From: Candidatus Nomurabacteria bacterium
GTDB lineage: Bacteria; Patescibacteriota; Minisyncoccia; Phycocordibacterales; UBA9973
Direction: 5' to 3'
DNA length: 64,000 nt
NCBI GenBank assembly: GCA_963832025.1
Contig: CAWHSF010000003.1
Span: 207,665-271,664 of the forward strand
The position numbers and the translations under genes were made by a program. The notes beneath the pieces were generated by a model. The model was not told the DNA's origin. It saw only the letters and a list, made by a program, of their open reading frames with translations, and ran no database searches. The number at the start of each line of letters is the position of its first letter. Position 1 is the first letter of the stretch. Below, in pieces: positions 1-62,061 of this stretch.

Positions 1-623
1 GCAGCACAAGAATTTATACCAATTAAAGAAGTCCGCGATGGAATAATCGTGTTAAAAAACGACGAGCTGCGGGCGATCGTTTTGGCCAATTCAATCAATC
101 TTTCCTTAAAATCAAACGATGAACAACAGGCAACTATTTTGCAATTTCAAAATTTTCTCAACACCTTGGATTTTCCAATACAAATATCGGTTCAGTCAAG
201 AAGACTGGATATTAGACCGTATCTTTTGCTTTTAGAAGATAGACTTAAGGTGCAAAGTGAGCCATTACTTAAACTGCAAACAAAAGAATACATAGAGTTC
301 ATTAAAAATTTTACTGACTACTGTGGCGATAATGACTAAAAGTTTTTTTGTGGTAGTGCCTTATACCCATACAACTTTAAAATCAGATTCTGGAATTTTT
401 GGAAGTTTTTTCTCTAAAAAGAGTAAAGAACAAACACAAGCAATGGCAGCAAGTTGATTTTGAAGAAAAAAGATCACAATTGGAGGAGAGAGTTGCTGTC
501 ATCCAGCAGGGTCTCGGGCGTTGTGGAATAAATTCTGCTCAGCTGGGAACCGAAGAAGTCGTGGAAGTTTTTTATAAAGTTTTCAATCCGGGAGAAGTTG
601 AAGGAAAAATAAAAGTTGAATAA
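1..623 (+). pseudogene. VirB4/TrbE-like ATPase, N-terminal region split over three reading frames (1-339, 302-457, 399-623)
   Basis: Open from base 1 (AAQEFIPIKEVRDGIIVLKND...). It continues as ...MTKSFFVVVPYTHT... in the +1 frame, then ...EERVAVIQQGLGRCGINSAQLGTEEVVEVFYKVFNP in the next +1 frame. Contiguous with the ATPase ORF at 616. Confidence 0.5.
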
Positions 624-2478: not shown

Positions 2479-2516
2479 TTGTAAGGTTCATAGAGTAGAA
2501 AGTCGCAAAGCTTGTA

Positions 2517-2525
2517 TGGTATAAT
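2517..2525 (+). promoter_or_regulatory. extended -10 box TGgTATAAT, 6 nt before ATG 2532 (leaderless-type)
   Basis: tatggtataat-taaatt-ATG read directly. Confidence 0.55.
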
Positions 2526-2531
2526 TAAATT

Positions 2532-3523
2532 ATGAAATTTAGGTTTCTATTACTGCTTTTAGTTACAATAATCATAACAACAGGTGTTATTTCACCGTTT
2601 AAAGTAAGTGCTTCTTCCCCCAGTGATGTTAGTATATCCACCGTTCCAGAAAACCCAGCTCCAAATCAAAATGTAACTATCACATTGAGCAGTTATGTAG
2701 ATGATTTGGATAGTGTTTTAATAACTTGGACTGTAAACGGAAAAAATTCTAGTTCGGGAATCGGCGATAAATCTTTTTCTTTAATCGCTCCAGCTTTGGG
2801 GCAAAAAACGACAGTCATAGCTACCATTTCTTTATCTGATGGAGATTTAAATGAAACGATACCGATAACCCCAGCAATAATGACCATGCTTTGGCAGGCA
2901 AATGATTCTTATGTGCCGCCTTTTTACGAGGGAAAAGCTTTGCCGTCACCGGACAGTGAAATAAAAGTTGTGGCTATGCCGGAAATAAAAAATGGTTCCA
3001 GTTTTGTCAATCCCACAAATATGACTTATGATTGGCAACTAGATGAAAACAATCGATGCGGACAATTCCGGTTATGGGAAAAATTCTTATATTTATGTAA
3101 GTGATTATTTGGATAATTCAAACAATGTTAGCGTGACAGCTTCTACTTTAGACCAACAAGACTTCAGTGGATGGAAGCTTAAATGTAGCAACCGTAAATC
3201 CAAAAATAGATTTTTATAAAGATGACCCAACTTTGGGAACTGTTTGGGAGAAGCAGTTTCAGATGGTATCAAGATTACGGGAAATGAAATTATTACAAGC
3301 TGCTCCATATTTCATATCACCAAAAGAGTTTAAGAATTCCTTTTTTGACATGGACCTGGTCTTTGAATGGAGCAACAGATTGCCGTGTCATCTTATAGTA
3401 GTAACATTATTGCCACTACAACTGCAAAACGGCATTCATGGAACATCTCAAATAGGCCTAGAGGTGAGCAATATTCACAGCTTGGTCAACACAGCCAGCA
3501 AGGAAATTAATGTAAATTTTTAA
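2532..3523 (+). pseudogene. secreted protein with signal peptide, interrupted by two +1 frame changes (2532-3104, ~3051-3219, 3167-3523)
   Basis: N-terminal signal peptide MKFRFLLLLLVTIIITTG. The sequence continues as IDADNSGYGKNSYIYVSDYLDNSNNVSVTASTLDQQDF in the +1 frame, then (V)DGSLNVATVNPKIDFYKDDP in the next +1 frame. Confidence 0.45.
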
Positions 3524-3529
3524 CATGAG

Positions 3530-3609
3530 TCCCGTTAGAAGTAACTTCTAATAATAACAATGTAATGATAAAAAACTATAAACAAAATAAAATAACTTCT
3601 AACGGGATG
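3530..3609 (+). repeat. intercistronic hairpin cassette, family G copy 3 (3' arm ends on ATG 3607)
   Basis: Left arm TCCCGTTAGAAGT (3530-3542). Proximal complement ACTTCTAA (3544-3551). Distal perfect complement ACTTCTAACGGGA (3595-3607), followed by TG. Confidence 0.7.
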
Positions 3610-4752
3610 AAAAAACTTTTATCGTACTTAATAATATTCATTGCGCTGGTCGCGATATTTGGCCCAACAATAAGAGTAAATGCACAGACATGCAATATGA
3701 ATGGTTATGATGGTAGCCCTACGGGAGCGTGTGATTATGGTGGCACCCCTGACTATACTGATTTTCAATCCACCCAAACTGAATGTAATGCTCAAATTGC
3801 CGCCAAGGATGCAGTATCTTTTATTCCTGACACATATGGGGTATGTACTATAAATGGTTCAGCAAATGCATGTTGGACAAAAACATCCTGTATACAAAAT
3901 AAGGGAACTTTTGCCGGTTACTATAATTTGTTACAGCCCCTTCCTGGAGTAGGCGCAACGTTTAATCCCATAAGCACTCCTGGTCAGCCAACTAGCTTGA
4001 GTAGCTACTTAAACCCAATGATAAATATTTTCATTGGTATTTGCGCAGTATTGGCTGTGATAATGATCTTAATGGGTGGAATTGAATACATGACAAGTGA
4101 ATTAATCTCAAGCAAAGAAGCAGGAAAGGAAAGAATAAGGAATGCTCTGCTTGGGCTTCTCTTGGCCCTCGGTGCTTGGAGTATTCTTAATACAATAAAT
4201 CCTAACTTACTTAAGTCTGATGTAAGTATTCCAGATGCAAATGTAACTACAAATATAACAGCGCAAAATTTTGCAAACTCTCCCTCAACGTACATTGTTC
4301 CTCTTGGCCAAACAGGAAAAACAAGTGGTACAAACTGTGATGAAAATGCAATTTCTACATCTAATCAAACGGCAAGCTCCGGTCTTAATAGTTCCCAGAT
4401 ACAGACACTTGCTTGTATAGGTGGGATAGAAAGCGGTTGTAACTCAGTCGTAAACTACAACTGGAATAATGGATCCTCTGCATATGGGCCTTTCCAGATA
4501 ACATTACAAACAAATGCTGGTTGTTTTGAAAATAGTGTTTGTCAGCAAGCAGCTGGAGTAAGTGGACCCCTTAATTGTGCCGCTGGATTCCATAATGGAA
4601 ATCCCATACCGGGTTCTCTAATTGTGGCACAATGCATGAAGGCTGCTGATAATTTTACCTGTAGTGTAGCTGCTGCCGCGTGTTTAATAAAACAGAACCC
4701 GAACTATAGCGACTGGAACGCAAACGGCAATCTTTCAAAATGCACATCATAA
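3607..4752 (+). CDS. T4SS-pilin-like protein (two hydrophobic helices) with Cys-rich N-terminal part and lytic-transglycosylase-like C-terminal region
   Basis: Signal peptide MKKLLSYLIIFIALVA. TrbC/VirB2-style hairpin IFIGICAVLAVIMILMGGIEYMTSE...ALLGLLLALGAWSILNTINPNL. The C-terminus has E-S...YGPFQI, resembling the SLT catalytic motif. The longest ORF starts at 3565; start 3607 is preferred. Confidence 0.55.
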   Translation: MKKLLSYLIIFIALVAIFGPTIRVNAQTCNMNGYDGSPTGACDYGGTPDYTDFQSTQTECNAQIAAKDAVSFIPDTYGVCTINGSANACWTKTSCIQNKGTFAGYYNLLQPLPGVGATFNPISTPGQPTSLSSYLNPMINIFIGICAVLAVIMILMGGIEYMTSELISSKEAGKERIRNALLGLLLALGAWSILNTINPNLLKSDVSIPDANVTTNITAQNFANSPSTYIVPLGQTGKTSGTNCDENAISTSNQTASSGLNSSQIQTLACIGGIESGCNSVVNYNWNNGSSAYGPFQITLQTNAGCFENSVCQQAAGVSGPLNCAAGFHNGNPIPGSLIVAQCMKAADNFTCSVAAAACLIKQNPNYSDWNANGNLSKCTS

Positions 4753-4768
4753 TTTAACCATAACTTTT

Positions 4769-6154
4769 ATGTCAAAAAGAAATTTTATACTTTTAATAAT
4801 CGTTCTCATTATCATCATCCTTGCTGTTTTTGGATTTTTGTTTTTCAACAAGCCAAGTGGTCAATCAGGAGGGAACACAACTGGCACAAATTTCTTTTCG
4901 CAATTTAATCCTTTTGCAAATGTCAAACCAAAAACACCGGTAACGACACCAGTGCAAACGCCGACAACGACACCAACGACAACTTCAACTCTTAATTTAA
5001 AACTGAAAGAAGTTTCCAGTATGCCAATAGCGGGTTTTACGATATTCAGCAAAGAAAGGTTGGTGCCAGTGGTAACAGCTACGACATCTTCAACCACCCC
5101 GCCTTCGGCACCCCTCCTTAATCAAGGAGGGGAAGGGGGTGGTAATTCTTCTTCCGCAACAAAAAAAACAACTATTAAAACAACCAAGCCAACTGCGCCA
5201 CCGACGGAAATGGCTCTAGCGTTAAGGTATGCTGCCAAGGCAACAGGAAATATTTATGAAACCTTTGCAGACACAATACAAGAAGGTCAATTTTCAACGA
5301 CAACAATCCCTGAAGTTTACGATGCTTATTTTGGAAACAACGGAAACTCGGTGGTGATGAGATACTTATCAGGAGACGAAGAAACGATTGAAACTTTTCT
5401 CGGAACATTACCAAAAGAAATTTTTGGTGCAGACACAATCGCCAACAATCAAATCACAGGGTCGTTGTTACCAAATAATATAAAAAGTATTAGTTTGTCA
5501 CCTGATACATCAAGCATGTTTTATTTATTTGACAGTGGAGACAGCATGATAGGCACAACTCTTAATTTTACAACCAATAAAAAAGTGCAAATTTTTACTT
5601 CTCCATTTACTGAATGGTCTTCCGGTTGGGGAAACAGTAAAATCATTACTCTTACCACAAAACCTACTTCGGGAATTCCCGGATATGTTTATGAAATGGA
5701 TCAAACTGGAAAAAATTTAAACCAGACTTTGGGAAACATTAATGGGCTTACCGCCTTACCTAGCCCGGACGGAAAATTTATACTTTATGGTGACAATAGT
5801 TTAAATTTAAATATTTACAATAAAAGCACCAATACTTCGACTTTGTTGGGAGTTAAAACTCTACCAGAAAAATGTGTCTGGAACAGTGGAAGTACCACAG
5901 TGTATTGCGCTGTACCAAAAGCTATCCCAGTAAACCAGTATCCGGATGCTTGGTATCAAGGAGAAGTTTCTTTTAATGATCAATTTTGGAAAATTAATGT
6001 TGGGACCGGAAACACCACTATGCTTGTAGACCCGATCACAATGCCCGGAGGGCAAGAAATTGATGGAATCAAACTTGCGGTAGATAGCGCTGAAAATTAT
6101 TTATTTTTTGTAAACAAAAAAGATTCTTATCTTTGGGAATTTTCTCTTAAATAG
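4769..6154 (+). CDS. membrane-anchored exported protein with Thr/Pro-rich linker and beta-propeller-like C-terminal part (hypothetical)
   Basis: 461-aa ORF; N-terminal TM LLIIVLIIIILAVFGFLFF; TPVTTPVQTPTTTPTTT linker; TolB-like PDGKFILYGDNS segment. Confidence 0.5.
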   Translation: MSKRNFILLIIVLIIIILAVFGFLFFNKPSGQSGGNTTGTNFFSQFNPFANVKPKTPVTTPVQTPTTTPTTTSTLNLKLKEVSSMPIAGFTIFSKERLVPVVTATTSSTTPPSAPLLNQGGEGGGNSSSATKKTTIKTTKPTAPPTEMALALRYAAKATGNIYETFADTIQEGQFSTTTIPEVYDAYFGNNGNSVVMRYLSGDEETIETFLGTLPKEIFGADTIANNQITGSLLPNNIKSISLSPDTSSMFYLFDSGDSMIGTTLNFTTNKKVQIFTSPFTEWSSGWGNSKIITLTTKPTSGIPGYVYEMDQTGKNLNQTLGNINGLTALPSPDGKFILYGDNSLNLNIYNKSTNTSTLLGVKTLPEKCVWNSGSTTVYCAVPKAIPVNQYPDAWYQGEVSFNDQFWKINVGTGNTTMLVDPITMPGGQEIDGIKLAVDSAENYLFFVNKKDSYLWEFSLK

Positions 6155-6686: not shown

Positions 6687-7463
6687 CTATTTTCCTTTAT
6701 CCATTTTTTCCATTTCTTCTAAAATAACTTTTGACTCCATTTTTACCATTTGAGGATTAAATTCTTTCTTTTTGATATAAATCTGTTGCCCAACCATAAA
6801 CAAATTGCTGGTAATCCAATATAAAGAAATCGCTCCAGAAATATTGTAAGCAATAAAGGCAACTAAAAAGGGGAAAACATATTTCATTTGCATATTCATG
6901 CTCTTGCCAAAACTATCTTGAAAAGAAGGACTCCTCCCTCCGGAAATAACCGGTTTTGGCATAAAATGTGCCTGCAGTGACTGAGAAATTCCAGCCAGAA
7001 TTGCTAAAATCAAGCTTTTTTTACCGATATCGACAATTCCTAGGAAAATCATATTAATGTGCGCGGGAACGTGAACAAAAGAATAAAGCACTCCGTTTTG
7101 AAAATGGATTCCTTTTAGGAAAACATAATACAAAGCAAAAATAATTGGGATTTGGATTAGAACCAAAAGACAGCCGGAAAATGGATTGGTTTTGTATTTT
7201 TTGTAAAGTTCAAAGGTGCGCGTAGCTTGTTCCTCTTTACTTGCTCCACTTTCTTTTATTTTCTGTAATTCCGGAGCAAGAATATTCATTTGAGCCTGAC
7301 TTTCAATGGATTTTCTGGAAAGCGGGAAAAGTATAACTTTCACAAGAATGGTAAGCACTATGACAGCAATCCCGACATCTCCGCCGGGGATAATTGACAC
7401 CAAAAAAGCCAAGGCATTTAATAGTGGCTGATATAAGATAAGGTTCCAGATATGACTAATCAT
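6687..7463 (-). CDS. yidC: membrane protein insertase YidC/Oxa1 family
   Basis: 258-aa polytopic ORF in rnpA-yidD-yidC synteny; YidC-like core helices. Confidence 0.85.
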   Translation of the reverse strand: MISHIWNLILYQPLLNALAFLVSIIPGGDVGIAVIVLTILVKVILFPLSRKSIESQAQMNILAPELQKIKESGASKEEQATRTFELYKKYKTNPFSGCLLVLIQIPIIFALYYVFLKGIHFQNGVLYSFVHVPAHINMIFLGIVDIGKKSLILAILAGISQSLQAHFMPKPVISGGRSPSFQDSFGKSMNMQMKYVFPFLVAFIAYNISGAISLYWITSNLFMVGQQIYIKKKEFNPQMVKMESKVILEEMEKMDKGK

Positions 7464-8285: not shown

Positions 8286-9626
8286 ATGAATACGAAACAA
8301 CTTTGGAAAAATTGCTTAGCGGAAATCGAAACTGGTATATCAAAAGCAAATTTCAGCACTTGGTTTAAAAACACCTCTATTGTAAGAGAAGATACCGGCA
8401 TTATCTATATTGGAGTACCAAATGAGTTCGTTCGTGACTGGCTAATGAATAAATACCACAAACTTATCACCAAAACCATCGCGGATGAATACGAAAATAT
8501 GCGCGCCGTGGAATATACGATTTCTAAAATAGAAAACCTGAGCCAAGAAGTAACCATCACGAAAGAAACTATTGAAAAAGAACTGCCCTTGAAGGATTTA
8601 TACATTAATCCAGAAGATAATTTAAACCCACGCTACCATTTCAATTCTTTTATCGTGGGAACTTTCAACGAACTTGCCTATGCAGCGGCACAAGCAATCA
8701 TAGAATCTCCCGGAACTAAATATAACCCGTTCTTCATTTACGGAGGCACCGGATTGGGGAAAACTCACCTGATTCAAGCGGTTGGGAACTCCATCAAAGA
8801 AAAATATCCAAATAAAAAAGTTCATTATATGACCTTGGAAAAATTTGCGACAGATTTTATAAATTCTCTGCAAAACAACAAAGCAAACTCCTTTAAAGAA
8901 AAATATCGCAAATACGACCTTTTAATCATAGATGACATTCAATTTATCGGGAAAATGGAAAAAATCCAAGAGGAACTTTTCCACACATTCAACACTTTTT
9001 ACGAAAACAACAAACAAATTATTTTTTCTTCCGACAAACACCCCAATTACATTCCGGAGTTGGCCGATCGTTTAAAATCTCGTTTTGCCGCCGGTATGAT
9101 TGTAGACATTTCGGAACCGGAATATGAGTCTCGTTTAGCAATCTTGAAAGTGAAACTGCGAGAACAAAACATTGAATTAGAAGAAGAACTTGTTGAATAT
9201 GTCGCAAGCTCCGTGCAGGGAAATATTCGCGAGCTAGAGGGGAGTTTAAATCTTATCGTTTGCCAATATCGCTTGAAAAATAAGCCTCTAACGCTCCTCG
9301 AGGTGAAAAACTTGTTAAAAAACAACATGAAACCCAAAAAGAATATGGCCATCAAAGATGTTGTAAAAATTGTGAGTGAATATTATAAACTTGAAGAACT
9401 CTCTGTTTATGAAAAGACTAGAAAAAAAGAAATAGTTAAGGCTAGGCAGATTGTGATGTATCTGCTCCGAGAAGACTTTAATGTTTCTTATCCTTTGATT
9501 GGACAAAAGCTAGGAGGGAAAGACCATACCACGGTTATACACTCTTGTTTAAAAATTAAAAAAGATTTAAAGAACGACCCACAACTTTTGCAAGAACTGG
9601 AACAAATAAGGATAATGTTCAAATAG
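8286..9626 (+). CDS. dnaA: chromosomal replication initiator DnaA
   Basis: 446 aa; AAA+ Walker A GGTGLGKTHL; C-terminal DNA-binding domain (...GGKDHTTVIHS...). Confidence 0.95.
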   Translation: MNTKQLWKNCLAEIETGISKANFSTWFKNTSIVREDTGIIYIGVPNEFVRDWLMNKYHKLITKTIADEYENMRAVEYTISKIENLSQEVTITKETIEKELPLKDLYINPEDNLNPRYHFNSFIVGTFNELAYAAAQAIIESPGTKYNPFFIYGGTGLGKTHLIQAVGNSIKEKYPNKKVHYMTLEKFATDFINSLQNNKANSFKEKYRKYDLLIIDDIQFIGKMEKIQEELFHTFNTFYENNKQIIFSSDKHPNYIPELADRLKSRFAAGMIVDISEPEYESRLAILKVKLREQNIELEEELVEYVASSVQGNIRELEGSLNLIVCQYRLKNKPLTLLEVKNLLKNNMKPKKNMAIKDVVKIVSEYYKLEELSVYEKTRKKEIVKARQIVMYLLREDFNVSYPLIGQKLGGKDHTTVIHSCLKIKKDLKNDPQLLQELEQIRIMFK

Positions 9627-9841: not shown

Positions 9842-10939
9842 ATGAAACTAGAATGTTCAATTGAAAAAATTAAAAACGCGGTTGCTCAAGTGGAAAGAAT
9901 AACCGGGAAAAATTTAACCTTACCAATACTTAGTTCGGTTTTACTTATTGCATCTTTAAAATCTTTAAAGTTAAGGTCTACGAACTTAAGTCTTGGTATT
10001 GAAATAGAAATTCCCGCAAAAATAGATCGTGAAGGGACCCTGGCTATTTCTGGTTCGGTTTTAAATTCAATTTTTTCAAATGTTTCCCAAAATGAAAATG
10101 TAAATTTAGAAGAAAAGGATGGAAATTTACTTATTAAAACAAATAAGACTCAAATAAGACTCAAAAGTCAGCCCCATGAAGATTTTCCGACAATCCCGAC
10201 GGTAAACGGAACCAGTTTTGAAATAGAATCAAAAAAATTAATCGATGGGATAAAATCGGTTTATTACAGCTCTTCTGTTTCAGACATAAAACCGGAAATT
10301 TCAAGTGTTTTTATTTATACAAATAATGACAACCTGGTTTTTGTCTCTACAGACTCTTTCAGATTAGCGGAAAAGAAAATTAAAACTAAAGGAGTTCCCG
10401 AAATTTTGGGCATCCTTATTCCCTTTAAAAACATTACCGAAATATTAAAGATTTTTGGCGAACTTCAAGGTTTAATAAAAGTTTGTTTCAATAAAAACCA
10501 AATTTCTTTTTCCACGGAAAATATTTATTTAACTTCCAGGGTAATTGATGGAATTTTCCCGGACTACCGTCAAATTATTCCCAAAAATTTTACCACGGAA
10601 ATTGTTGTTCTAAAGCAAGACTTGCTAAATGCGCTTAAACTTTCGAATATATTTTCTGACAAATTCAACCAAGTTAATCTCAAGGTTCTTCCAAAAGAAA
10701 AGATTTTTGAGCTTTCTTCAGCAAACAACGATATTGGAGAAAACAAAACTTATTTAGATGCGGTGATAAAAGGAGAAAACATTGAATTAGGCTTCAATTA
10801 TAAATACTTTTGGGATTGTTTCGTTTCTATTACTACCGACAGTGTTTCTATAAGATTATCCGGAAGTGGCAAACCAATAGTTGTTTCTCCTGTTTCTGAC
10901 CCATTATTTACTTATCTCATCATGCCGATGAATAAATAA
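9842..10939 (+). CDS. dnaN: DNA polymerase III beta sliding clamp
   Basis: 365-aa ORF immediately after dnaA; clamp-like length and C-terminus (...YLIMPMN). Confidence 0.9.
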   Translation: MKLECSIEKIKNAVAQVERITGKNLTLPILSSVLLIASLKSLKLRSTNLSLGIEIEIPAKIDREGTLAISGSVLNSIFSNVSQNENVNLEEKDGNLLIKTNKTQIRLKSQPHEDFPTIPTVNGTSFEIESKKLIDGIKSVYYSSSVSDIKPEISSVFIYTNNDNLVFVSTDSFRLAEKKIKTKGVPEILGILIPFKNITEILKIFGELQGLIKVCFNKNQISFSTENIYLTSRVIDGIFPDYRQIIPKNFTTEIVVLKQDLLNALKLSNIFSDKFNQVNLKVLPKEKIFELSSANNDIGENKTYLDAVIKGENIELGFNYKYFWDCFVSITTDSVSIRLSGSGKPIVVSPVSDPLFTYLIMPMNK

Positions 10940-44320: not shown

Positions 44321-44944
44321 TTATTTATGGCTCACTTCAATGCCTCCTTGCGAAGGAGAGGCAGATATTATTTTTTTAAGTTCTAAAAGAGCTCTACGGT
44401 GTTGGCTTTTGACCGTGTTTAGCGGTTTGTCTAGAATTTTTCCTATTTCTTCAAAAGTCATTTCTTCTTGGTAATGAAGAATCAAAACTTCCTGATAATC
44501 TAAACGTAATTTTTCCAAAGTCTTATTCAAAAATTGACTGTCTTGTAATTTTTGCAAGGTCACGTCCGGCAACAGATCTTCTGCAGGAATATTTTCGGCA
44601 AAAGAATTTATATTTTCTTCGTCCTTGTTTTCCATGTCGGAAAACAGCAAACTTCTTTTTTTTCTCAAAAAATCGGTTACGGTATTTTTTGTAATAGTAA
44701 AAATCCAAGTTTTGAAACTTGCCTTTTTTGAATCAAAGTTACGAATATTTTTCCATATTTTTATAAAAACTTCTTGAACTATGTCTGGTGCATCGTTGCG
44801 ATTTGTTAGGCGTGCAGTAAAGTTATAAAGAGAAGTGGTATAACGATTTATGAGAATTTTTAACGCTTCTTGTTCTCTGTTTTTGTATAAAATAAGAATT
44901 TCTTCGTCACTTGATTTAGTTAGGTCACTATCATCATTTTCCAT
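44321..44944 (-). CDS. ECF-type sigma-70 family RNA polymerase sigma factor
   Basis: Region 2 DIVQEVFIKIWKN; region 4 HTH MTFEEIGKILDKPLNTVKSQHRRAL. Start MENDDSD chosen from the promoter spacing. Confidence 0.8.
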   Translation of the reverse strand: MENDDSDLTKSSDEEILILYKNREQEALKILINRYTTSLYNFTARLTNRNDAPDIVQEVFIKIWKNIRNFDSKKASFKTWIFTITKNTVTDFLRKKRSLLFSDMENKDEENINSFAENIPAEDLLPDVTLQKLQDSQFLNKTLEKLRLDYQEVLILHYQEEMTFEEIGKILDKPLNTVKSQHRRALLELKKIISASPSQGGIEVSHK

Positions 44945-44950
44945 GCCTTT

Positions 44951-44959
44951 AATATAGCA
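44951..44959 (-). promoter_or_regulatory. extended -10 box TGcTATATT, 6 nt before sigma-factor ATG 44944
   Basis: Minus strand: tgtgctatatt-aaaggc-ATG. Confidence 0.5.
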
Positions 44960-44984
44960 CAAATTTTTTTGGTTTTTCCATATT

Positions 44985-45034: not shown

Positions 45035-48000
45035 TTATTCTTGTACTGTTGTTGTGGTAGTTTTCTTTCCGAGAGGTTGATGATCTACAACAGTGGTAGT
45101 TCTTTTGATAAAAGGAGCTGTGGGCGGTGGAAGATATGCTGGATTTATTTTTCTTTGTCCGTAAATATATTTTGCTAACAATATCAATATAAGAATAAGT
45201 ATGATTATGATAAGCCAACCAAATATATTTGTCGGGAAGAAGCCAGCTCCGAAAGCGAATGCTCCAAGAGGGGAGGTCGTTCCGGTTGTTGCACTCCATA
45301 CTTGAGCGGAAACATTCGCATTGACTGATTGAGAATTACCGGAAGGGTCAACATAGTTTAAGGTTGCAGGGAAGTTGAGCAATGTGCCTGCGGTTGCGTC
45401 GCTGTTTACCTGTGTTTTTACTGTTACCACACCGGAAGCTCCTCCTCTAAGTGTTCCCAAGTTGAATACCAAAGTATTTCCGAGAACATTAGGATTGATT
45501 GGGTTCGATGAAAGATAAGTTACTTCTTGTGGCAACACTAACTGCAAACTTAGATTGGTAGCAGATCCTGTTCCGACATTTTGATAATTTATAGTGTAAT
45601 TAATTTCATCTCCTGGGTGTGGTCTGGTGTTGTCAATTGTAGGAACAATCGGTTGGTCTCTATTTACCGAAGAAGTAATAAGAAGAAGTGAACTTGCAGC
45701 TGTCCTGTTTACATATCTGATTACTGTCGTCGGACTCTGTGCCCCAGTTGTGGTAAAGCTTAATATATAACCATTACTACTTTGATAGGAATCTTGCGCA
45801 ATTGCTCGGAAGTAATAAGTTGTTCCAGGGCTTAATCCACTCAATGTGTCTGTGTGTATAACCGATGGCAATGTTCCGACAGCTGTGGTTGTAGTCGTAT
45901 TTCCCAAATTTATAGTTGGGCCCCACTCAAACCAAGCATTTATTGGGCTGGAATCAGAACTGCTAATTAAGGAGTTCAATTGTGCACTGGTGCTTAATAC
46001 TTGTGTTGCTTGCGTGGTGACGACACTTAGATTGCTTGCTATTGGTTGTGGATATATTGGTGTTGGAACGGGATATACCGGAACTATTGGTTGATAGTTT
46101 TGATTTACATAAACAGTGGTTGAACCAGTCGCTTGCTGTCCGGTGCTACTAGTACAAACAATATTGTAAGTAGTTGTATAAGTTAGAGCTCCAGTAGTTA
46201 TACTGCCGGAAGTACTTTGTGTTCCGGAAAGTCCATTGTAACCACCAGTAATACTACAATAACTTGCGTTAGTTGAGTTCCAAGAAATAATACTGGAACC
46301 ATTATAGTTGACACTGGAAGGATTTGCGTAAATGTTGACGGTAGGTTGCAAAATTTGATTTTGATTTACATAAACAGTGGTTGAACCAGTCGCTTGCTGT
46401 CCGGTGCTACTAGTACAAACAATATTGTAAGTAGTTGTATAAGTTAGAGCTCCAGTAGTTATACTGCCGGAAGTACTTTGTGTTCCGGAAAGTCCATTGT
46501 AACCACCAGTAATACTACAATAACTTGCGTTAGTTGAGTTCCAAGAAATAATACTGGAACCATTGTAGTTGACACTGGAAGGATTTGCGTAAATGTTGAC
46601 GGTAGGAATCTGGTTTTGAATTTGATTTACCGACACCGTCGCTGAAGCACTTACTTGTGTTCCATTGGTTCCATAACAAGTAATTGAATAGGTTGTAGTT
46701 CCACTTGGTACTACAACTCCGGAACCACTAGTTGCTGTACTGGAAGTCCAGTAAGCCTGACAAGATGTTGCGTTATTTGAACTCCAAGTAAGTGTAGAGT
46801 TTGCTCCGGATTGGATGGAAGTTGGGTTGGCGTAAAGAGAAACGGTTGGGTTTTGATATTGAATCTGATTTACCGACACCGTCGCTGAAGCACTTACTTG
46901 TGTTCCATTGGTTCCATAACAAGTAATTGAATAGGTTGTAGTTCCACTTGGTACTACAACTCCGGAACCACTAGTTGCTGTACTGGAAGTCCAGTAAGCC
47001 TGACAAGATGTTGCGTTATTTGAACTCCAAGTAAGTGTAGAGTTTGCTCCGGATTGGATGGAAGTTGGGTTGGCGTAAAGAGAAACGGTTGGGTTTTGAT
47101 ATTGAATCTGATTTACCGACACCGTCGCTGAAGCACTTACTTGTGTTCCATTGGTTCCATAACAAGTAATTGAATAGGTTGTAGTTCCACTTGGTACTAC
47201 AACTCCGGAACCACTAGTTGCTGTACTGGAAGTCCAGTAAGCCTGACAAGATGTTGCGTTATTTGAACTCCAAGTAAGTGTAGAGTTTGCTCCGGATTGG
47301 ATGGAAGTTGGGTTGGCGTAAAGAGAAACGGTTGGGTTTTGATATTGAATCTGATTTACCGACACCGTCGCTGAAGCACTTACTTGTGTTCCATTGGTTC
47401 CATAACAAGTAATTGAATAGGTTGTAGTTCCACTTGGTACTACAACTCCGGAACCACTAGTTGCTGTACTGGAAGTCCAGTAAGCCTGACAAGATGTTGC
47501 GTTATTTGAACTCCAAGTAAGTGTAGAGTTTGCTCCGGATTGGATGGAAGTTGGGTTGGCGTAAAGAGAAACGGTTGGGTTTTGAATCTGTTGCGCTGCT
47601 ACTGTTACCGTCGCATATGCGGAAGCTTGTGCTCCGGTACTGCTGGTACAAGTAAGATTGTAAGAAGTTGTATTAGCTAAAGCTCCAGTATTAAAACTAC
47701 CGGAAGTATTTTGATTTCCTCCCCAACCATTTGTACCACCACTTGCGATGCAAGATGTTGCGTTGGTGGAATTCCAAGTTAAGATACTTGTTCCATTGTA
47801 AGCTACGGAAGTTGGATTAGCGGAAAGAGAAACTGTCGGCTGAACCTGACCACTCACTGACACCGTCGCATAGGCGGAAGCTTGTGCTCCGGTACTGCTG
47901 GTACAAGTAAGATTGTAAGAAGTTGTATTAGCTAAAGCTCCAGTATTAAAACTACCGGAAGTATTTTGATTTCCTCCCCAACCATTTGTACCACCACTTG

Positions 48001-48967
48001 CGATGCAAGAAGTTGCGTTAGTAGAATTCCAAATTAACGTACTTGTTCCATTGTAAGCTACGGAAGTTGGATTAGCGGTTAAACTGACAGTTGGGGTTTT
48101 TATCTGTTGAGTTACCGACACCGTCGCTGAAGCACTTACTTGTGTTCCATTGGTTCCATAACAAGTAATTGAATAGGTTGTAGTTCCACTTGGTACTACA
48201 ACTCCGGAACCACTAGTTGCTGTACTGGAAGTCCAGTAAGCCTGACAAGATGTTGCGTTATTTGAACTCCAAGTAAGTGTAGAGTTTGCTCCGGATTGGA
48301 TGGAAGTTGGGTTGGCGTAAAGAGAAACGGTTGGGTTTTGAATCTGTTGCGCTGCTACTGTTACCGTCGCATATGCGGAAGCTTGTGCTCCGGTACTGCT
48401 GGTACAAGTAAGATTGTAAGAAGTTGTATTAGCTAAAGCTCCAGTATTAAAACTACCGGAAGTATTTTGATTTCCTCCCCAACCATTTGTACCACCACTT
48501 GCGATGCAAGATGTTGCGTTGGTGGAATTCCAAGTTAAGATACTTGTTCCATTGTAAGCTACGGAAGTTGGATTAGCTGTAAGGTTAACGGTTGGTGTAA
48601 CTACAGTAGGTTGGCAAGAAGCGGTAGTAAAAGAAACCATACTTCCGGACCATGATCCTTGAGGGGCATTGTTGAATTCTGTTTCATAATAATATGTAGT
48701 GTTTTGAGTGAGACCATTTATTACGGCACTGAAATCCGAATACGCAGTATAAGTTTGAGGAGTCGTGGAATATCCGAGAGATGGAGTAGGTCCCCATTCA
48801 AACCAAGCTGAAGTCGGAGTTCCGTTTGGACTTACGTAGCCATTTAAGGTTGCGCTGTTGCAAGTCTGCACTTGATATTGTGCTGCTGCTTTGTTTACAT
48901 TAATAAAAAGCCCGAAAACGGTAACGAAAACGATAAACATGGATATTGATAACTTTTTCATATTCAT
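45035..48967 (-). CDS. giant cell-surface repeat protein (signal peptide, FN3-like ends, 10 Ig-like tandem repeats, DUF11-like domain, C-terminal TM anchor)
   Basis: 1310 aa. N-terminal MNMKKLSISMFIVFVTVFGLF. Two ...WFEWGPT... modules. Three repeat types (A x3, B x5, C x2). C-terminal WLIIIILILILILLAKY anchor. Confidence 0.8.
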   Translation of the reverse strand: MNMKKLSISMFIVFVTVFGLFINVNKAAAQYQVQTCNSATLNGYVSPNGTPTSAWFEWGPTPSLGYSTTPQTYTAYSDFSAVINGLTQNTTYYYETEFNNAPQGSWSGSMVSFTTASCQPTVVTPTVNLTANPTSVAYNGTSILTWNSTNATSCIASGGTNGWGGNQNTSGSFNTGALANTTSYNLTCTSSTGAQASAYATVTVAAQQIQNPTVSLYANPTSIQSGANSTLTWSSNNATSCQAYWTSSTATSGSGVVVPSGTTTYSITCYGTNGTQVSASATVSVTQQIKTPTVSLTANPTSVAYNGTSTLIWNSTNATSCIASGGTNGWGGNQNTSGSFNTGALANTTSYNLTCTSSTGAQASAYATVSVSGQVQPTVSLSANPTSVAYNGTSILTWNSTNATSCIASGGTNGWGGNQNTSGSFNTGALANTTSYNLTCTSSTGAQASAYATVTVAAQQIQNPTVSLYANPTSIQSGANSTLTWSSNNATSCQAYWTSSTATSGSGVVVPSGTTTYSITCYGTNGTQVSASATVSVNQIQYQNPTVSLYANPTSIQSGANSTLTWSSNNATSCQAYWTSSTATSGSGVVVPSGTTTYSITCYGTNGTQVSASATVSVNQIQYQNPTVSLYANPTSIQSGANSTLTWSSNNATSCQAYWTSSTATSGSGVVVPSGTTTYSITCYGTNGTQVSASATVSVNQIQYQNPTVSLYANPTSIQSGANSTLTWSSNNATSCQAYWTSSTATSGSGVVVPSGTTTYSITCYGTNGTQVSASATVSVNQIQNQIPTVNIYANPSSVNYNGSSIISWNSTNASYCSITGGYNGLSGTQSTSGSITTGALTYTTTYNIVCTSSTGQQATGSTTVYVNQNQILQPTVNIYANPSSVNYNGSSIISWNSTNASYCSITGGYNGLSGTQSTSGSITTGALTYTTTYNIVCTSSTGQQATGSTTVYVNQNYQPIVPVYPVPTPIYPQPIASNLSVVTTQATQVLSTSAQLNSLISSSDSSPINAWFEWGPTINLGNTTTTTAVGTLPSVIHTDTLSGLSPGTTYYFRAIAQDSYQSSNGYILSFTTTGAQSPTTVIRYVNRTAASSLLLITSSVNRDQPIVPTIDNTRPHPGDEINYTINYQNVGTGSATNLSLQLVLPQEVTYLSSNPINPNVLGNTLVFNLGTLRGGASGVVTVKTQVNSDATAGTLLNFPATLNYVDPSGNSQSVNANVSAQVWSATTGTTSPLGAFAFGAGFFPTNIFGWLIIIILILILILLAKYIYGQRKINPAYLPPPTAPFIKRTTTVVDHQPLGKKTTTTTVQE
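46101..46622 (-). repeat. 2 x 261-bp near-identical tandem coding repeat (type C)
   Basis: tgatttacataaacagtggttgaacc... recurs at 46101 and 46362. Confidence 0.85.
46624..47585 (-). repeat. 4 x 243-bp tandem coding repeat (type B), apparently identical at nucleotide level
   Basis: gatttaccgacaccgtcgctgaagc... starts at 46624, 46867, 47110 and 47353. Units 2 and 3 read identical by eye. Confidence 0.9.
47586..48600 (-). repeat. interleaved type A / type B repeat units (A3, A2, B1, A1) with long identical stretches
   Basis: ttgaatctgttgcgctgctactgttaccgtcgcatatgcgg occurs near 47580 and again near 48320. Confidence 0.75.
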
Positions 48968-49275: not shown

Positions 49276-49347
49276 GCCCTCATAGTTTAATGGATAGAAT
49301 GCGAGCTTGCGGAGTTTGCGATCCAGGTTCGATTCCTGGTGAGGGCA
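49276..49347 (+). tRNA. tRNA-Arg (anticodon GCG)
   Basis: Acceptor GCCCTCA/TGAGGGC; anticodon loop TTGCGGA; T-arm CCAGG-TTCGATT-CCTGG. Confidence 0.8.
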
Positions 49348-49389
49348 CACAAATAAAAAAACACTCTGAGAGTGTTTTTTTATTTGTGT
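49347..49389. terminator. long bidirectional stem-loop terminator
   Basis: ACACAAATAAAAAAACACTC-tgag-AGTGTTTTTTTATTTGTGT, between the tRNA and the convergent gene. Confidence 0.75.
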
Positions 49390-49391
49390 AG

Positions 49392-49880
49392 TTAAAATCC
49401 AAGCATTTCCATTATTCTATCTGTCGGGTGTTCTCTCATTTCAACTTCTGCAATATTTTTTGAAGTCATAATGTAATGAATGTCTGTCGCCATCGTCTCA
49501 TCTATCGGGATGGTTATGATTGGCATAAAAGCTCTTTCTGAGTGTATGAAAAGAAGTGATTTTGTATTTATCTGTTCGGGTTGTTCTGTTTGTATCCAAA
49601 AAGACTTTATATTTTCATAAGGATAAATACGATTGCCGATTTTAAGTCCTTTATTGTTTAATTCATAAAAAATAGTTCCCGGCTTTTTTACCGCAAAAAA
49701 TCCGAGCAATATTCCAGAAAGAATCAATAATGCGGCAAAAAAATAATCACCAAAAATAATTGCAGCAATTGAACTGGTTATCACAATAATTCCGAGAGCC
49801 CAAAACCAATCTTTGCTTCTTTCTCGTTCTTCGTATTCGAGTGCGGACCAATTTAATTTTTCACTTAAACCCTCATCCAT
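49392..49880 (-). CDS. membrane protein with bacterial PH-like domain (hypothetical)
   Basis: 162 aa; two TM helices followed by KKPGTIFYELNNKGLKIGNRIYPYENIKSFWI. Confidence 0.4.
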   Translation of the reverse strand: MDEGLSEKLNWSALEYEERERSKDWFWALGIIVITSSIAAIIFGDYFFAALLILSGILLGFFAVKKPGTIFYELNNKGLKIGNRIYPYENIKSFWIQTEQPEQINTKSLLFIHSERAFMPIITIPIDETMATDIHYIMTSKNIAEVEMREHPTDRIMEMLGF

Positions 49881-59881: not shown

Positions 59882-60421
59882 ATGAAAAATAACTTTCCAA
59901 AAATATTTATATTTCTCTCAGCCTTAGTTTTCATATTTGCTTGCTTGGTTTTTGTGTTTTTATATATGAAAATAAATCAAAACAATCAAAAAGCAGAAGC
60001 AGGAATGGTGGCTTGGCAAACAGAAACAGAAAGGAGAAACGATATAGTTACTCTTAATACCTCGCTTGCCGAGGTGGCTCCTGACAGAACTTTGCTTGAA
60101 ACGCATTTTGCTCAAAGCTCTGACGTTGTGCCATTTTTAAATACCATCGGACAATTAGGGGCACCGGTCGGAGCTACCGTGGTAATCTCTTCGGTGGAGA
60201 CAAGTACGGACAACAGCTCATTGGTGGTGGATTTAAAAGCGACAGGGACTTTCGGGCAAGTTTATAAATTCTTGACCCTTTTAGAGAATTCTCCATATGA
60301 AATAAGTTTTAATTCAATGGATATGCATGAGTTGGTCGTGCCAACAACCCCTAATGAAAAAGTCGGAATTTCACAATGGGAAGGTGATTTTGAAATACAA
60401 CTTTTAAGTTATGTTCCATAA
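59882..60421 (+). CDS. PilO-like bitopic membrane protein
   Basis: 179 aa; N-terminal TM; position after pilN. Confidence 0.45.
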   Translation: MKNNFPKIFIFLSALVFIFACLVFVFLYMKINQNNQKAEAGMVAWQTETERRNDIVTLNTSLAEVAPDRTLLETHFAQSSDVVPFLNTIGQLGAPVGATVVISSVETSTDNSSLVVDLKATGTFGQVYKFLTLLENSPYEISFNSMDMHELVVPTTPNEKVGISQWEGDFEIQLLSYVP

Positions 60422-60430
60422 ATTCATTAT

Positions 60431-60739
60431 ATGAAATTAAATTTTTTCAAAAAGAAAAATAATTTTAAGAAGAAAAAGTTTGACATAAGGCCAGATTTCT
60501 TTTGGGAGATTATCTTTTTTTGTACGGCATTGATAATGGTGGGATCTTTTGTTTTTGGGTATTACCTTTTTATGAAAATAAATCAAGAGCCAACTTTGTC
60601 AATTTCCAGTAATTCCGGACAAGTCGGTACAGTAAATAAAGACCGTATTGAAAAAGACCTAAATTATTTTTCAGCAAAAGCACAAACATCAACTGAAATA
60701 TTAAATTCGTCCGCGCCGGTCGTTGACCCATCGCTCTAA
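60431..60739 (+). CDS. small bitopic membrane protein in pilus cluster (hypothetical)
   Basis: 102 aa; Lys-rich N-terminus then a TM. Confidence 0.35.
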   Translation: MKLNFFKKKNNFKKKKFDIRPDFFWEIIFFCTALIMVGSFVFGYYLFMKINQEPTLSISSNSGQVGTVNKDRIEKDLNYFSAKAQTSTEILNSSAPVVDPSL

Positions 60740-60778
60740 ATGTGCTAATTTTAAACAGTATTTATGAATAAACATTTG

Positions 60779-60851
60779 CGCGCTTAGCTCAGTTGGTAGA
60801 GCAACTCATTTACACTGAGAAGGTCGGGGGTTCGAGTCCCTCAGCGCGCAC
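60779..60851 (+). tRNA. tRNA-Val (anticodon UAC)
   Basis: Acceptor GCGCGCT/AGCGCGC; anticodon loop TTTACAC; T-arm GGGGG-TTCGAGT-CCCTC. Confidence 0.9.
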
Positions 60852-60869
60852 TAGAGCCTTAGAGAAATG

Positions 60870-60941
60870 CCCTCGTAGTTCAATGGATAGAACAGAGCTC
60901 TTCTAAGGCTTCGATGTAGGTTCGATTCCTACCGAGGGCAC
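60870..60941 (+). tRNA. tRNA-Arg (anticodon UCU)
   Basis: Acceptor GCCCTCG/CGAGGGC; anticodon loop CTTCTAA; T-arm GTAGG-TTCGATT-CCTAC. Confidence 0.9.
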
Positions 60942-61259
60942 AAAAATAAGCGGAGCATATTTTTGTGCCCGAGAGCGAGCAAACTGCTTTGCTCGCGGGT
61001 AGGAAGCGAAAAGCTTTTCATTAATAGCGAGAAATTTATTTCGAGCTATTTGAAAAGGTATACTGTTCCCGTAGGGAAAGATATCCTACCGAGGGCACAA
61101 AAATAAGCGGAGCATATTTTTGTGCCCGAGAGCGAGCAAACTGCTTTGCTCGCGGGTAGGAAGCGAAAAGCTTTTCATTAATAGCGAGAAATTTATTTCG
61201 AGCTATTTGAAAAGGTATACTGTTCCCGTAGGGAAAGATATCCTACCGAGGGCACAAAT
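60929..61259 (+). repeat. 2 x 157-bp direct tandem repeat, each unit starting with the last 13 nt of tRNA-Arg(UCU)
   Basis: CCTACCGAGGGCACAAA occurs at 60929, 61086 and 61243. The intervening 157-bp units read identical. Confidence 0.9.
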
Positions 61260-61278
61260 TTTAAATAAATTACGGTTG

Positions 61279-61287
61279 TGATACAAT
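61279..61287 (+). promoter_or_regulatory. extended -10 box TGaTACAAT, 6 nt before ATG 61294
   Basis: ttgtgatacaat-tgttct-ATG. Confidence 0.5.
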
Positions 61288-61293
61288 TGTTCT

Positions 61294-62061
61294 ATGGACG
61301 AAAATACGAATACGGAACCCATAGAAAATATCAACTCTGCTACCTTTAAATATATTCGTACTAGTTATTTACCATATGTAATTGTTTACATAGGTGTTTT
61401 TCTTGCCTTAATGATTATTTTTCACAACCCAGTTATTATTTACGTAATGATTATTCTGGGGTTCTTTGGGTACTCTTTTATTTTTAAAAAAATTAAAACT
61501 GAGTTCACAGAAGAGTTTGGTAAATCTATTGGTTTTAGTTACACAAAATCGACAGGAATAGAAACAGTTTCGGGGAAGTTATTTAAAACAGGTCACAGCC
61601 AATCTCTTTACGATGTTTTGACTGGTGTTTACCAAAATATCCCCATGCGTATTTTCACCCTATGCTTTACCGAAGGATATGGTAAAAATTCTCATACTTA
61701 CTCTTATACGGTTTTTGAATCCACTCTCAATAAGGTTGTGCCAGATATTTTATTATATTCAAAAAAACACTCAAGCGCCGTGCTTGATTTTTTTAATGGT
61801 GATGAGACAGTGGAGTTAGAAGGTGATTTTAATAAATATTTTAAATTACGAGTCCCAAAAGGATATGAGCAAGAGGCTTATCAAATATTCGCGCCCGATG
61901 TCATGGCTGATTTGATTGATAAAGCGCAAGAGGCCAGTTTTGAATTTACTGGCAACAAGCTTTATATATATGCTACGACAATCATCACAACCAAGGAACA
62001 AATGCAATCAATGTTTTCTCTTTCTGAATATCTTATTGCTTTATTTGATAAAAATATCTAA
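61294..62061 (+). CDS. hypothetical membrane protein (two N-terminal TM helices)
   Basis: 255-aa ORF. Possibly DUF3137-like; weak. Confidence 0.4.
   Translation: MDENTNTEPIENINSATFKYIRTSYLPYVIVYIGVFLALMIIFHNPVIIYVMIILGFFGYSFIFKKIKTEFTEEFGKSIGFSYTKSTGIETVSGKLFKTGHSQSLYDVLTGVYQNIPMRIFTLCFTEGYGKNSHTYSYTVFESTLNKVVPDILLYSKKHSSAVLDFFNGDETVELEGDFNKYFKLRVPKGYEQEAYQIFAPDVMADLIDKAQEASFEFTGNKLYIYATTIITTKEQMQSMFSLSEYLIALFDKNI

Follow-up and report, generated by a model that had tools for sequence, protein, structure and literature searches.

A tandem repeat behind a tRNA-Arg gene of Candidatus Nomurabacteria bacterium belongs to a family of structured, apparently tRNA-like elements in Patescibacteria

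Why should the 3' end of a tRNA gene recur twice, at an exact interval, directly behind the gene itself? We examined this question for a stretch of 64,000 nt from Candidatus Nomurabacteria bacterium (assembly GCA_963832025.1, contig CAWHSF010000003.1, positions 207,665 to 271,664 of the forward strand), hereafter called the window, in which a tRNA-Arg(UCU) gene is followed by two tandem units. Each unit contains a structured element and ends in a further copy of the tRNA 3' end. Judged by its alignment to genuine tRNA genes, the element appears to be tRNA-shaped but not a tRNA, and related elements lie behind several tRNA species in Patescibacteria (the candidate phyla radiation, CPR). We tentatively favor the possibility that it is a folded RNA, read through from the tRNA gene, which would imitate the top half of a tRNA while bearing a variable insert, and which would be dispensable and evolutionarily mobile.

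The array occupies positions 60927-61258 and was reported by Tandem Repeats Finder as 2.1 copies of a 157-nt period with 100% matches and no indels. A repeat search and direct string comparison both found its two units (60927-61083 and 61084-61240) to be identical, which confirms the 157-bp tandem duplication originally predicted for the 3' end of tRNA-Arg(UCU). The extent of the repeated core needed correction. The tRNA 3' end followed by CAAA does recur as predicted, but the tRNA part is 14 nt rather than 13 and the whole core, TCCTACCGAGGGCACAAA, is 18 nt long, consisting of the T-stem 3' strand, the acceptor 3' strand and the discriminator of tRNA-Arg(UCU) plus 4 trailer bases. The discriminator is the A at 60940, and CCA is not encoded. 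The three copies of the core (Table 1) are its only matches in the window at up to 3 mismatches, where shuffles give an expectation of 0.04. Each unit is made up of a 24-nt hairpin spacer and a 134-nt structured element, and a single 157-nt unit folds at −56 kcal/mol, with z = −5.1 for the plus strand and z = −7.2 for the minus strand. The interior of the unit has no further occurrence within the window. A satellite-like array, another early suggestion, is not what we see, as there are only 2.1 copies here and one or two in relatives.

The duplication is unlikely to be an artifact of assembly. In the independent Logan assembly of run ERR11523672, contigs break at the repeat locus, and contig L001 begins with the 30-mer TAGGGAAAGATATCCTACCGAGGGCACAAA, which ends in the core and forms a k-1 node. 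Such a node branches only if the reads hold both the unit-to-unit and the unit-to-flank sequence, and therefore the tandem junction is present in the data; that there are two units rather than three or more rests on the assembly. A second contig, L002, lies upstream of the locus and ends inside tRNA-Val (near window position 60806), not at the repeat, probably because the tRNA sequence is common to other members of the community. Contigs such as that of the relative L162, described below, could be chimeric at identical tRNAs.

The 134-nt element follows the plan of a tRNA over part of its length. From the 5' end it presents an acceptor-5'-like strand, a hairpin (H1) in the place of the anticodon arm, CGU in the place of the variable loop, and a T-like helix (P1). 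The 3' strand of P1 reproduces the T-stem 3' strand of the tRNA letter for letter, and the acceptor 3' strand and the discriminator are copied as well. The 7-nt T-loop is replaced by an insert of about 75 nt with two helices, P2 and P3, the latter closed by a GUA loop. H1 (its loop often CUGC), the helices P1 to P3 and the motifs at the junctions are the constant parts. The hairpins listed in the original prediction exist, but one of them, GAAAAGCTTTTC, is better read within the longer helix CTTTTCA/TGAAAAG (P2 in Table 1), which covaries in relatives.

Covariation supports this fold. In a MAFFT alignment of 11 sequences, 88.5% of cells were paired compared with 68.6% in shuffles and 38-49% in slid controls, and 26 of 34 pairs showed compensatory changes. 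We also built a covariance model, R1, and aligned its 26 matches (25 distinct sequences) to it. Here 94% of cells were paired (slid controls, 38-46%), 31 of the 34 base pairs were compensatory, and double-change cells numbered 210 versus 54 in shuffles; the observed values were reached by 0 of 500 shuffles. An alignment fitted to R1 is biased towards the model, but the independent MAFFT alignment had shown a similar picture beforehand. For P1, 95% of cells keep the pairing, and the helix covaries with the tRNA.

The likeness to tRNA also shows in the matches of R1, which was built from elements alone and yet matches genuine tRNA-Arg genes at 15-28 bits. In that alignment H1 falls on the anticodon arm, CGU on the variable loop and P1 on the T stem, and an 81-nt insert stands opposite the 7-nt T-loop. 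The 5' strand of the element, GCCCGAG or GCCCUCG, is identical or similar to the acceptor 5' strand. The element is nevertheless not a canonical tRNA or tmRNA, as the H1 loop has 4 nt, the D arm is absent and the T-loop is replaced; ARAGORN identified 5 tRNAs in the window, none of them inside the repeat. A tRNA-mimicking small RNA had been among the alternatives first proposed, and it is the one that we favor, given that the unit aligns to real tRNAs and that its family is tied to many tRNA species. The junction between P2 and P3 (61058-61063 and 61215-61220) reads GUAUAC in the window and several relatives, a self-complementary hexamer, where the family consensus is (G)UACUG; the hexamer could serve in dimerization or a tertiary contact.

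The element is not confined to this locus. No other copy of the unit was found elsewhere in the window. In related loci amounting to about 1 Mb, R1 identified 26 copies, behind tRNA-Arg (TCT, CCT, GCG and CCG), Lys(TTT), Val(TAC), Gly(CCC) and Ser(TGA). Wherever a tRNA precedes, the copy lies on the strand of that tRNA, and its P1 and end sequences match it. Two copies, in L159 and L163, are orphans or tandem repeats that have no tRNA in front. A scan with the last 20 nt of tRNA-Arg, one genome per species, yielded at least 120 related loci, nearly all from Patescibacteria; A-type loci, that is, those with the window's type of element, were added from metagenomes by a scan with a degenerate A-type pattern (L157-L164). 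Among the matches listed, 21 of the 119 loci with at least 120 nt downstream had a second perfect CCTACCGAGGGCA no more than 350 nt downstream, for which we estimate a chance expectation below 1e-5 per locus. Neighboring genes also carry perfect repeats of their own 3' ends (tRNA-Val, 4/34; tRNA-His, 2/18; tRNA-Phe, 3/17), and none were seen at tRNA-Leu(GAG) (0/18) or tRNA-Ser(TGA) (0/16). The start of each repeat falls either within the T-loop or at the 3' strand of the T stem; the repeats span 13-20 nt and extend 0-7 nt into the trailer. The sizes that they bound cluster at 80-300 nt, and no repeat-bounded island of kilobase scale (>1.5 kb) was present in about 120 related loci among the matches listed. 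By a rough criterion (an R1 match, a perfect repeat or the C-type sequence motif), some element is present in 41 of 130 loci.

Members of the family have a common layout. A hairpin begins straight after the discriminator and is followed by a complement of the tRNA 3' end, in which a hairpin often splits the acceptor part from the T-stem/T-loop part; a structured core and then a direct copy of the tRNA 3' end complete the unit. The cores themselves fall into several types. The C-type core, CCGGAGC-[hairpin]-GCGAGGCGGGGTCGCG-[hairpin]-YGTGACC, lies behind Arg and Val tRNAs and also stands free after hairpins, while B and D types lie behind Arg and His tRNAs in the same layout as the window's A-type. 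Modules are common to elements of unrelated tRNAs; for example, L036 (Val) and L056 (Arg) agree at 63 of 79 positions. None of these modules corresponds to a known RNA family in Rfam 15. Within window positions 60000-62000, covariance models at E values up to 10 recovered the two tRNAs only, and in related loci only tRNAs reached the gathering score (18 loci) and no match overlapped a module at E up to 0.5 (8 loci). We found no description of such elements in the literature searched. Coverage of that literature was incomplete, so an earlier description is possible, but the family is apparently undescribed.

Several other loci are worth recording. In L057, 131 nt downstream of tRNA-Arg(GCG), there is a partial tRNA duplicate (GCG anticodon arm, variable loop, T-stem 5' strand and TTC) with two simple hairpins inserted exactly in the T-loop before GATTCCTACCGAGGGCA, and the repeat continues into the trailer for about 20 nt; the arrangement resembles a stage midway from a tandem copy of the tRNA to the structured elements. 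In L116 (3447-3560), at least 20 nt of the 3' end of tRNA-Arg(CCT) recur as a perfect inverted copy, GTGCCCTCGGTAGGAATCGAAT, that lies 9-11 nt behind the gene; an open reading frame (ORF) comes next, and there is no direct repeat within 4.4 kb. Core types are mixed in the arrays of L083 and L039. The B-type unit of L083 is succeeded by a terminator, then by a hairpin like H1, and then by a C-type module that stands free and lacks the terminal tRNA copy; in L039 two elements, one linked to Arg and the other to Val, point towards a single bidirectional terminator between them. Viral contigs were searched with three element motifs. The 22-mer had no match, the 17-mer had 3 matches that were all judged from sequence context to be chance, and the 16-mer had 25, of which 24 were chance matches in G+C-rich DNA and one was real. 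The latter, L129 (positions 2880-3319 of IMG/VR UViG_3300033463_005745), is classed as viral and holds an array of at least 3 C-type modules, each with a GCAAACTGCTTTGC hairpin, separated by hairpins and tRNA-like 3' end copies (CAAATCCCTCCCTCTCCG), with the tRNA beyond the stretch compared. Either a phage that carries the elements or a CPR fragment wrongly classed as viral could account for L129.

How did the locus come to have two units? Relatives, compared here as had been proposed, have 0, 1 or 2. In the syntenic L164, with flanks 66-76% identical, a single A-type unit is 76% identical to that of the window, which fits vertical descent. L003 is likewise syntenic (neighboring protein 78% identical) and has one repeat-bounded unit, whose interior differs but keeps GTGCCCGAGAG and TAGGGAAAGATATCCTACCGAGGGCAC; it corresponds to the window element minus about 96 nt, preceded by a C-type module. 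A metagenome scan with a 25-mer common to the window and L003 had 0 matches. When synteny was followed through the 255-aa membrane protein encoded downstream, the tRNA locus was kept only in L003 (in P0003, P0004, P0006, P0007, P0008 and P0010 it was not kept, or no DNA was compared). The Val-Arg tRNA pair of the window also precedes the element in L003, L162 and L164. Elsewhere, L117 holds a pair of units that differ from each other, and its relative L158 a single unit (flanks 85% identical; tRNA plus unit 1, 99.6%), with the extra unit bounded by TCCTACCGAGGGCACATT. Partial or complete tandem copies of the 3' part occur in L052, L006, L109, L123 and L163, and arrays of different units in L031, L117, L161 and L083. 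A locus with one unit would already hold 18-nt direct repeats 157 bp apart, and unequal recombination or slippage between them, or re-insertion at the tRNA end, would yield two perfect units. The existence of one-unit relatives and the recurrence of duplications elsewhere make slippage, which the original prediction had also considered, or unequal exchange the likely cause of the doubling, and the 100% identity of the units indicates that it was recent. Therefore, the doubling in the window is, on the sequences compared, most likely a recent event of recombination or slippage between the 18-nt repeats, and the 157-bp duplication itself would be an ordinary secondary event.

What the element does is a harder question. 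In the reading that we favor, it would act as a folded single strand, most likely an RNA into which transcription of the tRNA gene continues. The window's spacer hairpin has a weak, A/U-rich stem that is not called as a plus-strand terminator, and such a poor terminator may permit read-through. The outer helices would imitate the acceptor/T-stem top half of the element's own tRNA, and the tRNA-maturation machinery could therefore recognize it; RNase P, RNase Z, the CCA-adding enzyme or other binders of the top half could trim or stabilize the element. The insert with P2 and P3 would be the functional or cargo part, and the tRNA-end repeats would be where members of the family are acquired, lost, duplicated or deleted internally. 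In keeping with a role as RNA, 19 of 27 units fold better as the plus (tRNA) strand, the mean difference being about 5 kcal/mol, and the R1 pairs on that strand include more G.U than A.C (29 against 17), although the preference is weak.

A number of observations weigh against this interpretation. In most relatives the spacer position is taken by a textbook palindromic intrinsic terminator, which thus stands between the tRNA and the element, and a promoter is not evident; consequently many copies may be poorly transcribed. The acceptor-like pairing ranges among members from 9 bp down to about 3 bp. It is degenerate in L164, L117, L065 and L017, and in L052 and L006 the distal copy has decayed and it is the genuine end of the tRNA that the 5' strand complements. 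Since this pairing is not universal, a requirement for processing by RNase P or RNase Z is weakened. The strand preference (29 G.U against 17 A.C) is weak, and these data suit RNA and single-stranded DNA alike. A patchy distribution and unrelated cores with one layout fit a premium on structure over sequence, as in recombination sites, and the match of the element ends to eight different tRNAs is not accounted for. Finally, L162 (contig Ga0302286_10083165) has the Val-Arg pair, flanks about 70% identical and one unit. Over the block that runs from GTGCCCGAGAG to the core it shares 98.5% identity with the window, while its spacer hairpin and downstream flank are unrelated; this block either moved laterally or may reflect a short contig that is chimeric at the 72-nt identical tRNA, and a resident RNA gene would not account for it.

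Several of these difficulties would be removed if the unit were an integron-like cassette, an explanation that we hold to be less likely than the RNA but its main and serious rival. The unit would then consist of a core, a hairpin spacer, an inverted core, a variable structured region and a core. In single-stranded DNA the inverted copy and the core would rebuild a duplex imitating the 3' end of the tRNA gene, an unlinked recombinase would exchange strands with that gene, and the spacer hairpin, as "cargo", would restore its terminator; identical units would result from excision and re-insertion at the tRNA end, and an empty site would have the tRNA joined straight to CAAATTTTAAATAA. The linear topology does match that of cassette arrays, with the layout seen in the window, L031, L117 and L161, and structure is conserved while sequence varies over several unrelated cores. 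Arrays of different units (in these last three and L083) and the gain or loss of whole units at core boundaries point in the same direction, as do the near-identical block with a different "cargo" hairpin in L162, the acceptor part of the repeat that is often perfect even without a pairing partner, and the orphan clusters in L159 and L163. The canonical terminator upstream of the block in most relatives argues against a need for transcription. Compared with the RNA interpretation, the cassette model better explains the upstream terminator, the unrelated cores, the perfect distal core without a partner, the arrays and the L162 block. However, no recombinase was found among the window ORFs of at least 180 aa or enriched near elements, and neither an attC consensus (R''/R' GTTRRRY boxes) nor an integron integrase was seen. 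Re-targeting to eight tRNAs would need a joint change of core and inverted copy, with the correct tRNA end supplied; as a DNA intermediate, a circle of 157 nt would be tiny; and the degenerate inverted acceptor part of several members and the slight G.U excess on the tRNA strand weigh against it. In its full form, the proposal would be that Patescibacteria carry protein-less, tRNA-anchored cassettes of 130-300 nt, each with a folded-strand recombination site and a replacement terminator, served by an unlinked recombinase, with tRNA genes as attI and a rewritable specificity, and this we consider unlikely.

Repetition of a tRNA 3' core had first been taken as the signature of integrase attachment sites, and the locus could accordingly be the scar of a tRNA-targeting prophage or island, with the repeats as attL and attR cores and the interior left behind after deletion of the cargo. 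The direct repeats do start in the T-loop or T-stem 3' strand, run 13-20 nt to the discriminator and include 0-7 nt of trailer, the window has three copies of an 18-nt repeat equal to the 3' part of the tRNA, and arrays accumulate at one tRNA; their start positions match a "T-loop" class of integrase sites that Williams reportedly defined in 2002. The interiors, however, are homologous across phylum-level lineages and tRNA species, with compensatory covariation unlike that of decaying scars, and their sizes cluster far below the island scale, at the 80-300 nt given above. There are no ORFs in the unit, and no conserved integrase half-site 5' of the right-hand core was visible by eye in the examples inspected. 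An integrase, for which the original prediction had advised a search, was not among the 37 window ORFs of at least 180 aa. Lacking integrase, cargo and kilobase-scale islands at the loci listed, the locus does not fit a plain att-site scar, which we think improbable. About as improbable is an absence of function, in which the unit would be a degenerate tandem tRNA copy or a template-switch extension of the terminator palindrome, amplified by slippage. The partial duplicate with T-loop hairpins in L057, the perfect 22-nt inverted copy with nothing else in L116, native terminators that are long palindromes already extending into the last bases of the tRNA, and the frequency of tandem partial duplications all suit such an origin. 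Yet H1 with its CUGC loop, the junction motifs and P2/P3 are common to elements of eight tRNA species and of distant lineages, and neutral debris would not be expected to keep compensation at 31 of 34 pairs that no shuffle equaled. Nor is the unit an ordinary terminator region conserved in relatives without the tRNA core. The least probable of all, to our minds very remote, is an intervening sequence in the T-loop, whereby the tRNA body would pair with the distal 3' copy and the intron-like insert between the copies would allow two routes of maturation. In most members the distal copy could stand in perfectly for the 3' end of the tRNA, and the stretch between the copies can fold on itself, the proximal 3' end pairing with the inverted copy. 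But the upstream tRNA is complete without splicing, the distal acceptor part has decayed in several members, and serial units make the route implausible; we know of no bacterial enzyme for such splicing in the T-loop.

Other candidates were considered and set aside. A primer-binding site of retroviral type is contradicted by the inverted copy, which complements the genomic trailer base and not CCA. Class C group II introns insert after terminators and begin with GUGYG. The element is far too small to be one and gives no Rfam signal, and no Rfam family of self-cleaving ribozymes (hammerhead, twister, hepatitis delta virus-like or similar) matched it. A casposon-type target duplication would lack both Cas1 and element-specific terminal repeats, an invertible switch is not compatible with cores that are always in one orientation relative to the tRNA, and a mimic of the anticodon loop in P3 is not compatible with loop-closing positions that covary as pairs. 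The TIGR-Tas arrays from CPR bear no relation to the elements; they are short guide arrays that come with a Tas protein. We also rejected a MITE (miniature inverted-repeat transposable element), since the end repeats equal the neighboring tRNA and vary with it, are 13-20 nt long, and there are only two tandem copies in the window.

Table 1. Positions of the tRNA genes, core copies, element parts and adjoining promoter-like site in the window.
Feature	Position	Strand	Detail
tRNA-Val(TAC)	60778-60851	+	First of the Val-Arg tRNA pair; ARAGORN; Rfam tRNA 70.4 bits
tRNA-Arg(TCT)	60869-60941	+	ARAGORN; Rfam tRNA 70.1 bits
Core copy 1, TCCTACCGAGGGCACAAA	60927-60944	+	Within the real tRNA 3' end and trailer
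Spacer hairpin 1, GGGCACAAAAATA-AGCGGAGCA-TATTTTTGTGCCC	60936-60970	+	Inverted repeat; begins within the tRNA 3' end
Structured element copy 1 (A-type), 134 nt	60965-61098	+	Covariance model R1, 138.9 bits, E = 9e-31
Acceptor-5'-like strand, GTGCCCGAGAG	60965-60975	+	Element copy 1
Hairpin H1, 9 bp, loop CUGC	60975-60996	+	Element copy 1
T-stem-5'-like strand and T-loop complement, GGTAGGAAGCGAA	60998-61010	+	Element copy 1
Helix P2	61014-61020 with 61051-61057	+	Element copy 1; around variable hairpin 61023-61050
Junction, GTATACTG	61058-61065	+	Element copy 1
Hairpin P3, GUA loop	61066-61078	+	Element copy 1
AGATA and copy of tRNA 3' end	61079-61098	+	Element copy 1
Core copy 2	61084-61101	+	Closes unit 1, opens unit 2
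Spacer hairpin 2	61093-61127	+	Same sequence as hairpin 1
Structured element copy 2	61122-61255	+	Identical to copy 1; R1, 138.9 bits
Core copy 3	61241-61258	+	Followed by native flank
Promoter-like site, TTTAAA, 16-nt spacer, TG-n-TACAAT	61260-61287	+	Assigned to downstream gene 61294-62061

The promoter-like site at the foot of Table 1 does not belong to the element and forms the boundary of the repeat region, and its neighborhood includes GTTGTGATACAATT, which is conserved in L003. The other tRNA-Arg of the window (GCG, 49276-49348) has no element. A perfect palindromic terminator with 19-nt arms, CACAAATAAAAAAACACTC-TGA-GAGTGTTTTTTTATTTGTG, starts right after its discriminator (tRNA and terminator together, 49276-49395), at the same relative position as the spacer hairpin. 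Many element-free tRNA loci in relatives have similar palindromes, some of which extend into the last 3-4 bases of the tRNA.

The neighbors of the repeat are patescibacterial housekeeping genes. Upstream are a type IV pilus PilM-like gene and genes for small membrane proteins, and downstream are genes for the 255-aa membrane protein (whose best named relative is from Candidatus Taylorbacteria), thymidylate synthase, dihydrofolate reductase and dCMP deaminase. Pfam searches of the 37 ORFs mentioned above identified no recombinase, transposase or reverse transcriptase either, and the only ORF of at least 50 aa that overlaps the repeat is a 53-aa frame with a TTG start (61120-61281). A test for enrichment of neighboring proteins over 130 loci gave nothing convincing (best p = 0.008, uncorrected).

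Elsewhere in the window, dnaA (8286-9626) lies beside dnaN (9842-10939), with yidC (6687-7463, minus strand) upstream, an arrangement from which the chromosomal replication origin is probably within the window. A conjugation or type IV secretion-like cluster at 616-6154, next to unannotated ORFs, includes a TraG/VirB4-type P-loop ATPase (616-2478) and a type IV secretion system pilin-domain protein (3565-4752). A 1310-aa protein encoded at 45035-48967 (minus strand) matches only DUF11 and Ig-like (FixG_C) domains and is probably a large surface protein; its gene adjoins that of an extracytoplasmic function (ECF)-type sigma factor (44321-44962).

If the element is an RNA, it would represent a new and well-supported structured RNA class, with 31 of 34 pairs covarying, in a huge and poorly understood bacterial radiation, and a natural "tRNA scaffold" bearing a variable insert. 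Should it instead be a site of recombination in folded DNA, it would count as a new type of mobile element, miniature in size, that carries no enzyme and has tRNA genes as its targets. Either way, the family accounts for odd tRNA-flanking repeats that annotation pipelines ignore, and it bears on the evolution of tRNA gene ends in CPR genomes.

Several known systems resemble the elements in part. Like MITEs and repeats of the repetitive extragenic palindrome (REP) type (ERIC, Correia, RPE, BIME), they are small, non-coding and hairpin-rich, have terminal inverted repeats, lie near terminators and are patchily distributed. In contrast to these repeats, their terminal repeats are the end of the adjacent tRNA, their position is fixed relative to the tRNA gene, and dispersed copies are absent from the window. 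With the att repeats of elements that integrate at tRNA genes, and with non-autonomous derivatives such as cis-mobilizable elements (CIMEs), they have in common direct repeats of the tRNA 3' end from the T-loop, tandem accretion at one tRNA gene and an intact tRNA, but the elements measure 100-300 nt rather than kilobases, have no integrase nearby, and possess a covarying interior and an extra inverted copy of the tRNA end. A further comparison is with the attC sites of integrons, with cassette arrays and with CALINs, the attC clusters that have no integrase. It covers the succession of core, cargo, inverted core, variable terminal structure and core, the conserved fold with variable sequence, the arrays, the integrase-less clusters and the duplicated cassettes. 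Unlike integrons, the elements have no GTTRRRY/RYYYAAC boxes, IntI was not found in the window, the "cargo" is a hairpin of 24-50 nt, and the core is a tRNA 3' end that differs from tRNA to tRNA.

Among RNAs, the E. coli glyW-cysT-leuZ 3' external transcribed spacer (3'ETS) is a short, unstructured small RNA from a tRNA trailer that acts as a base-pairing sponge. It provides a precedent for a functional small RNA derived from the trailer of a tRNA transcript, although 3'ETS RNAs have neither the tRNA mimicry nor the tRNA-end repeat of the elements. Closer in shape are mascRNA from MALAT1, the plant GUT15 tRNA-like RNA and viral 3' tRNA-like structures (TLS), which are cut out by tRNA enzymes. 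Like them, the element would copy the acceptor/T-stem top half and adjoin another transcript, and it could recruit RNase P, RNase Z and the CCA-adding enzyme. It differs from them in its bacterial host, in having no D arm, in the two-helix insert of about 75 nt that takes the place of the T-loop, and in an acceptor-like pairing that is not always kept, its processing being a prediction only. It differs from them, too, in that its stems are literal copies of the neighboring tRNA and change with it.

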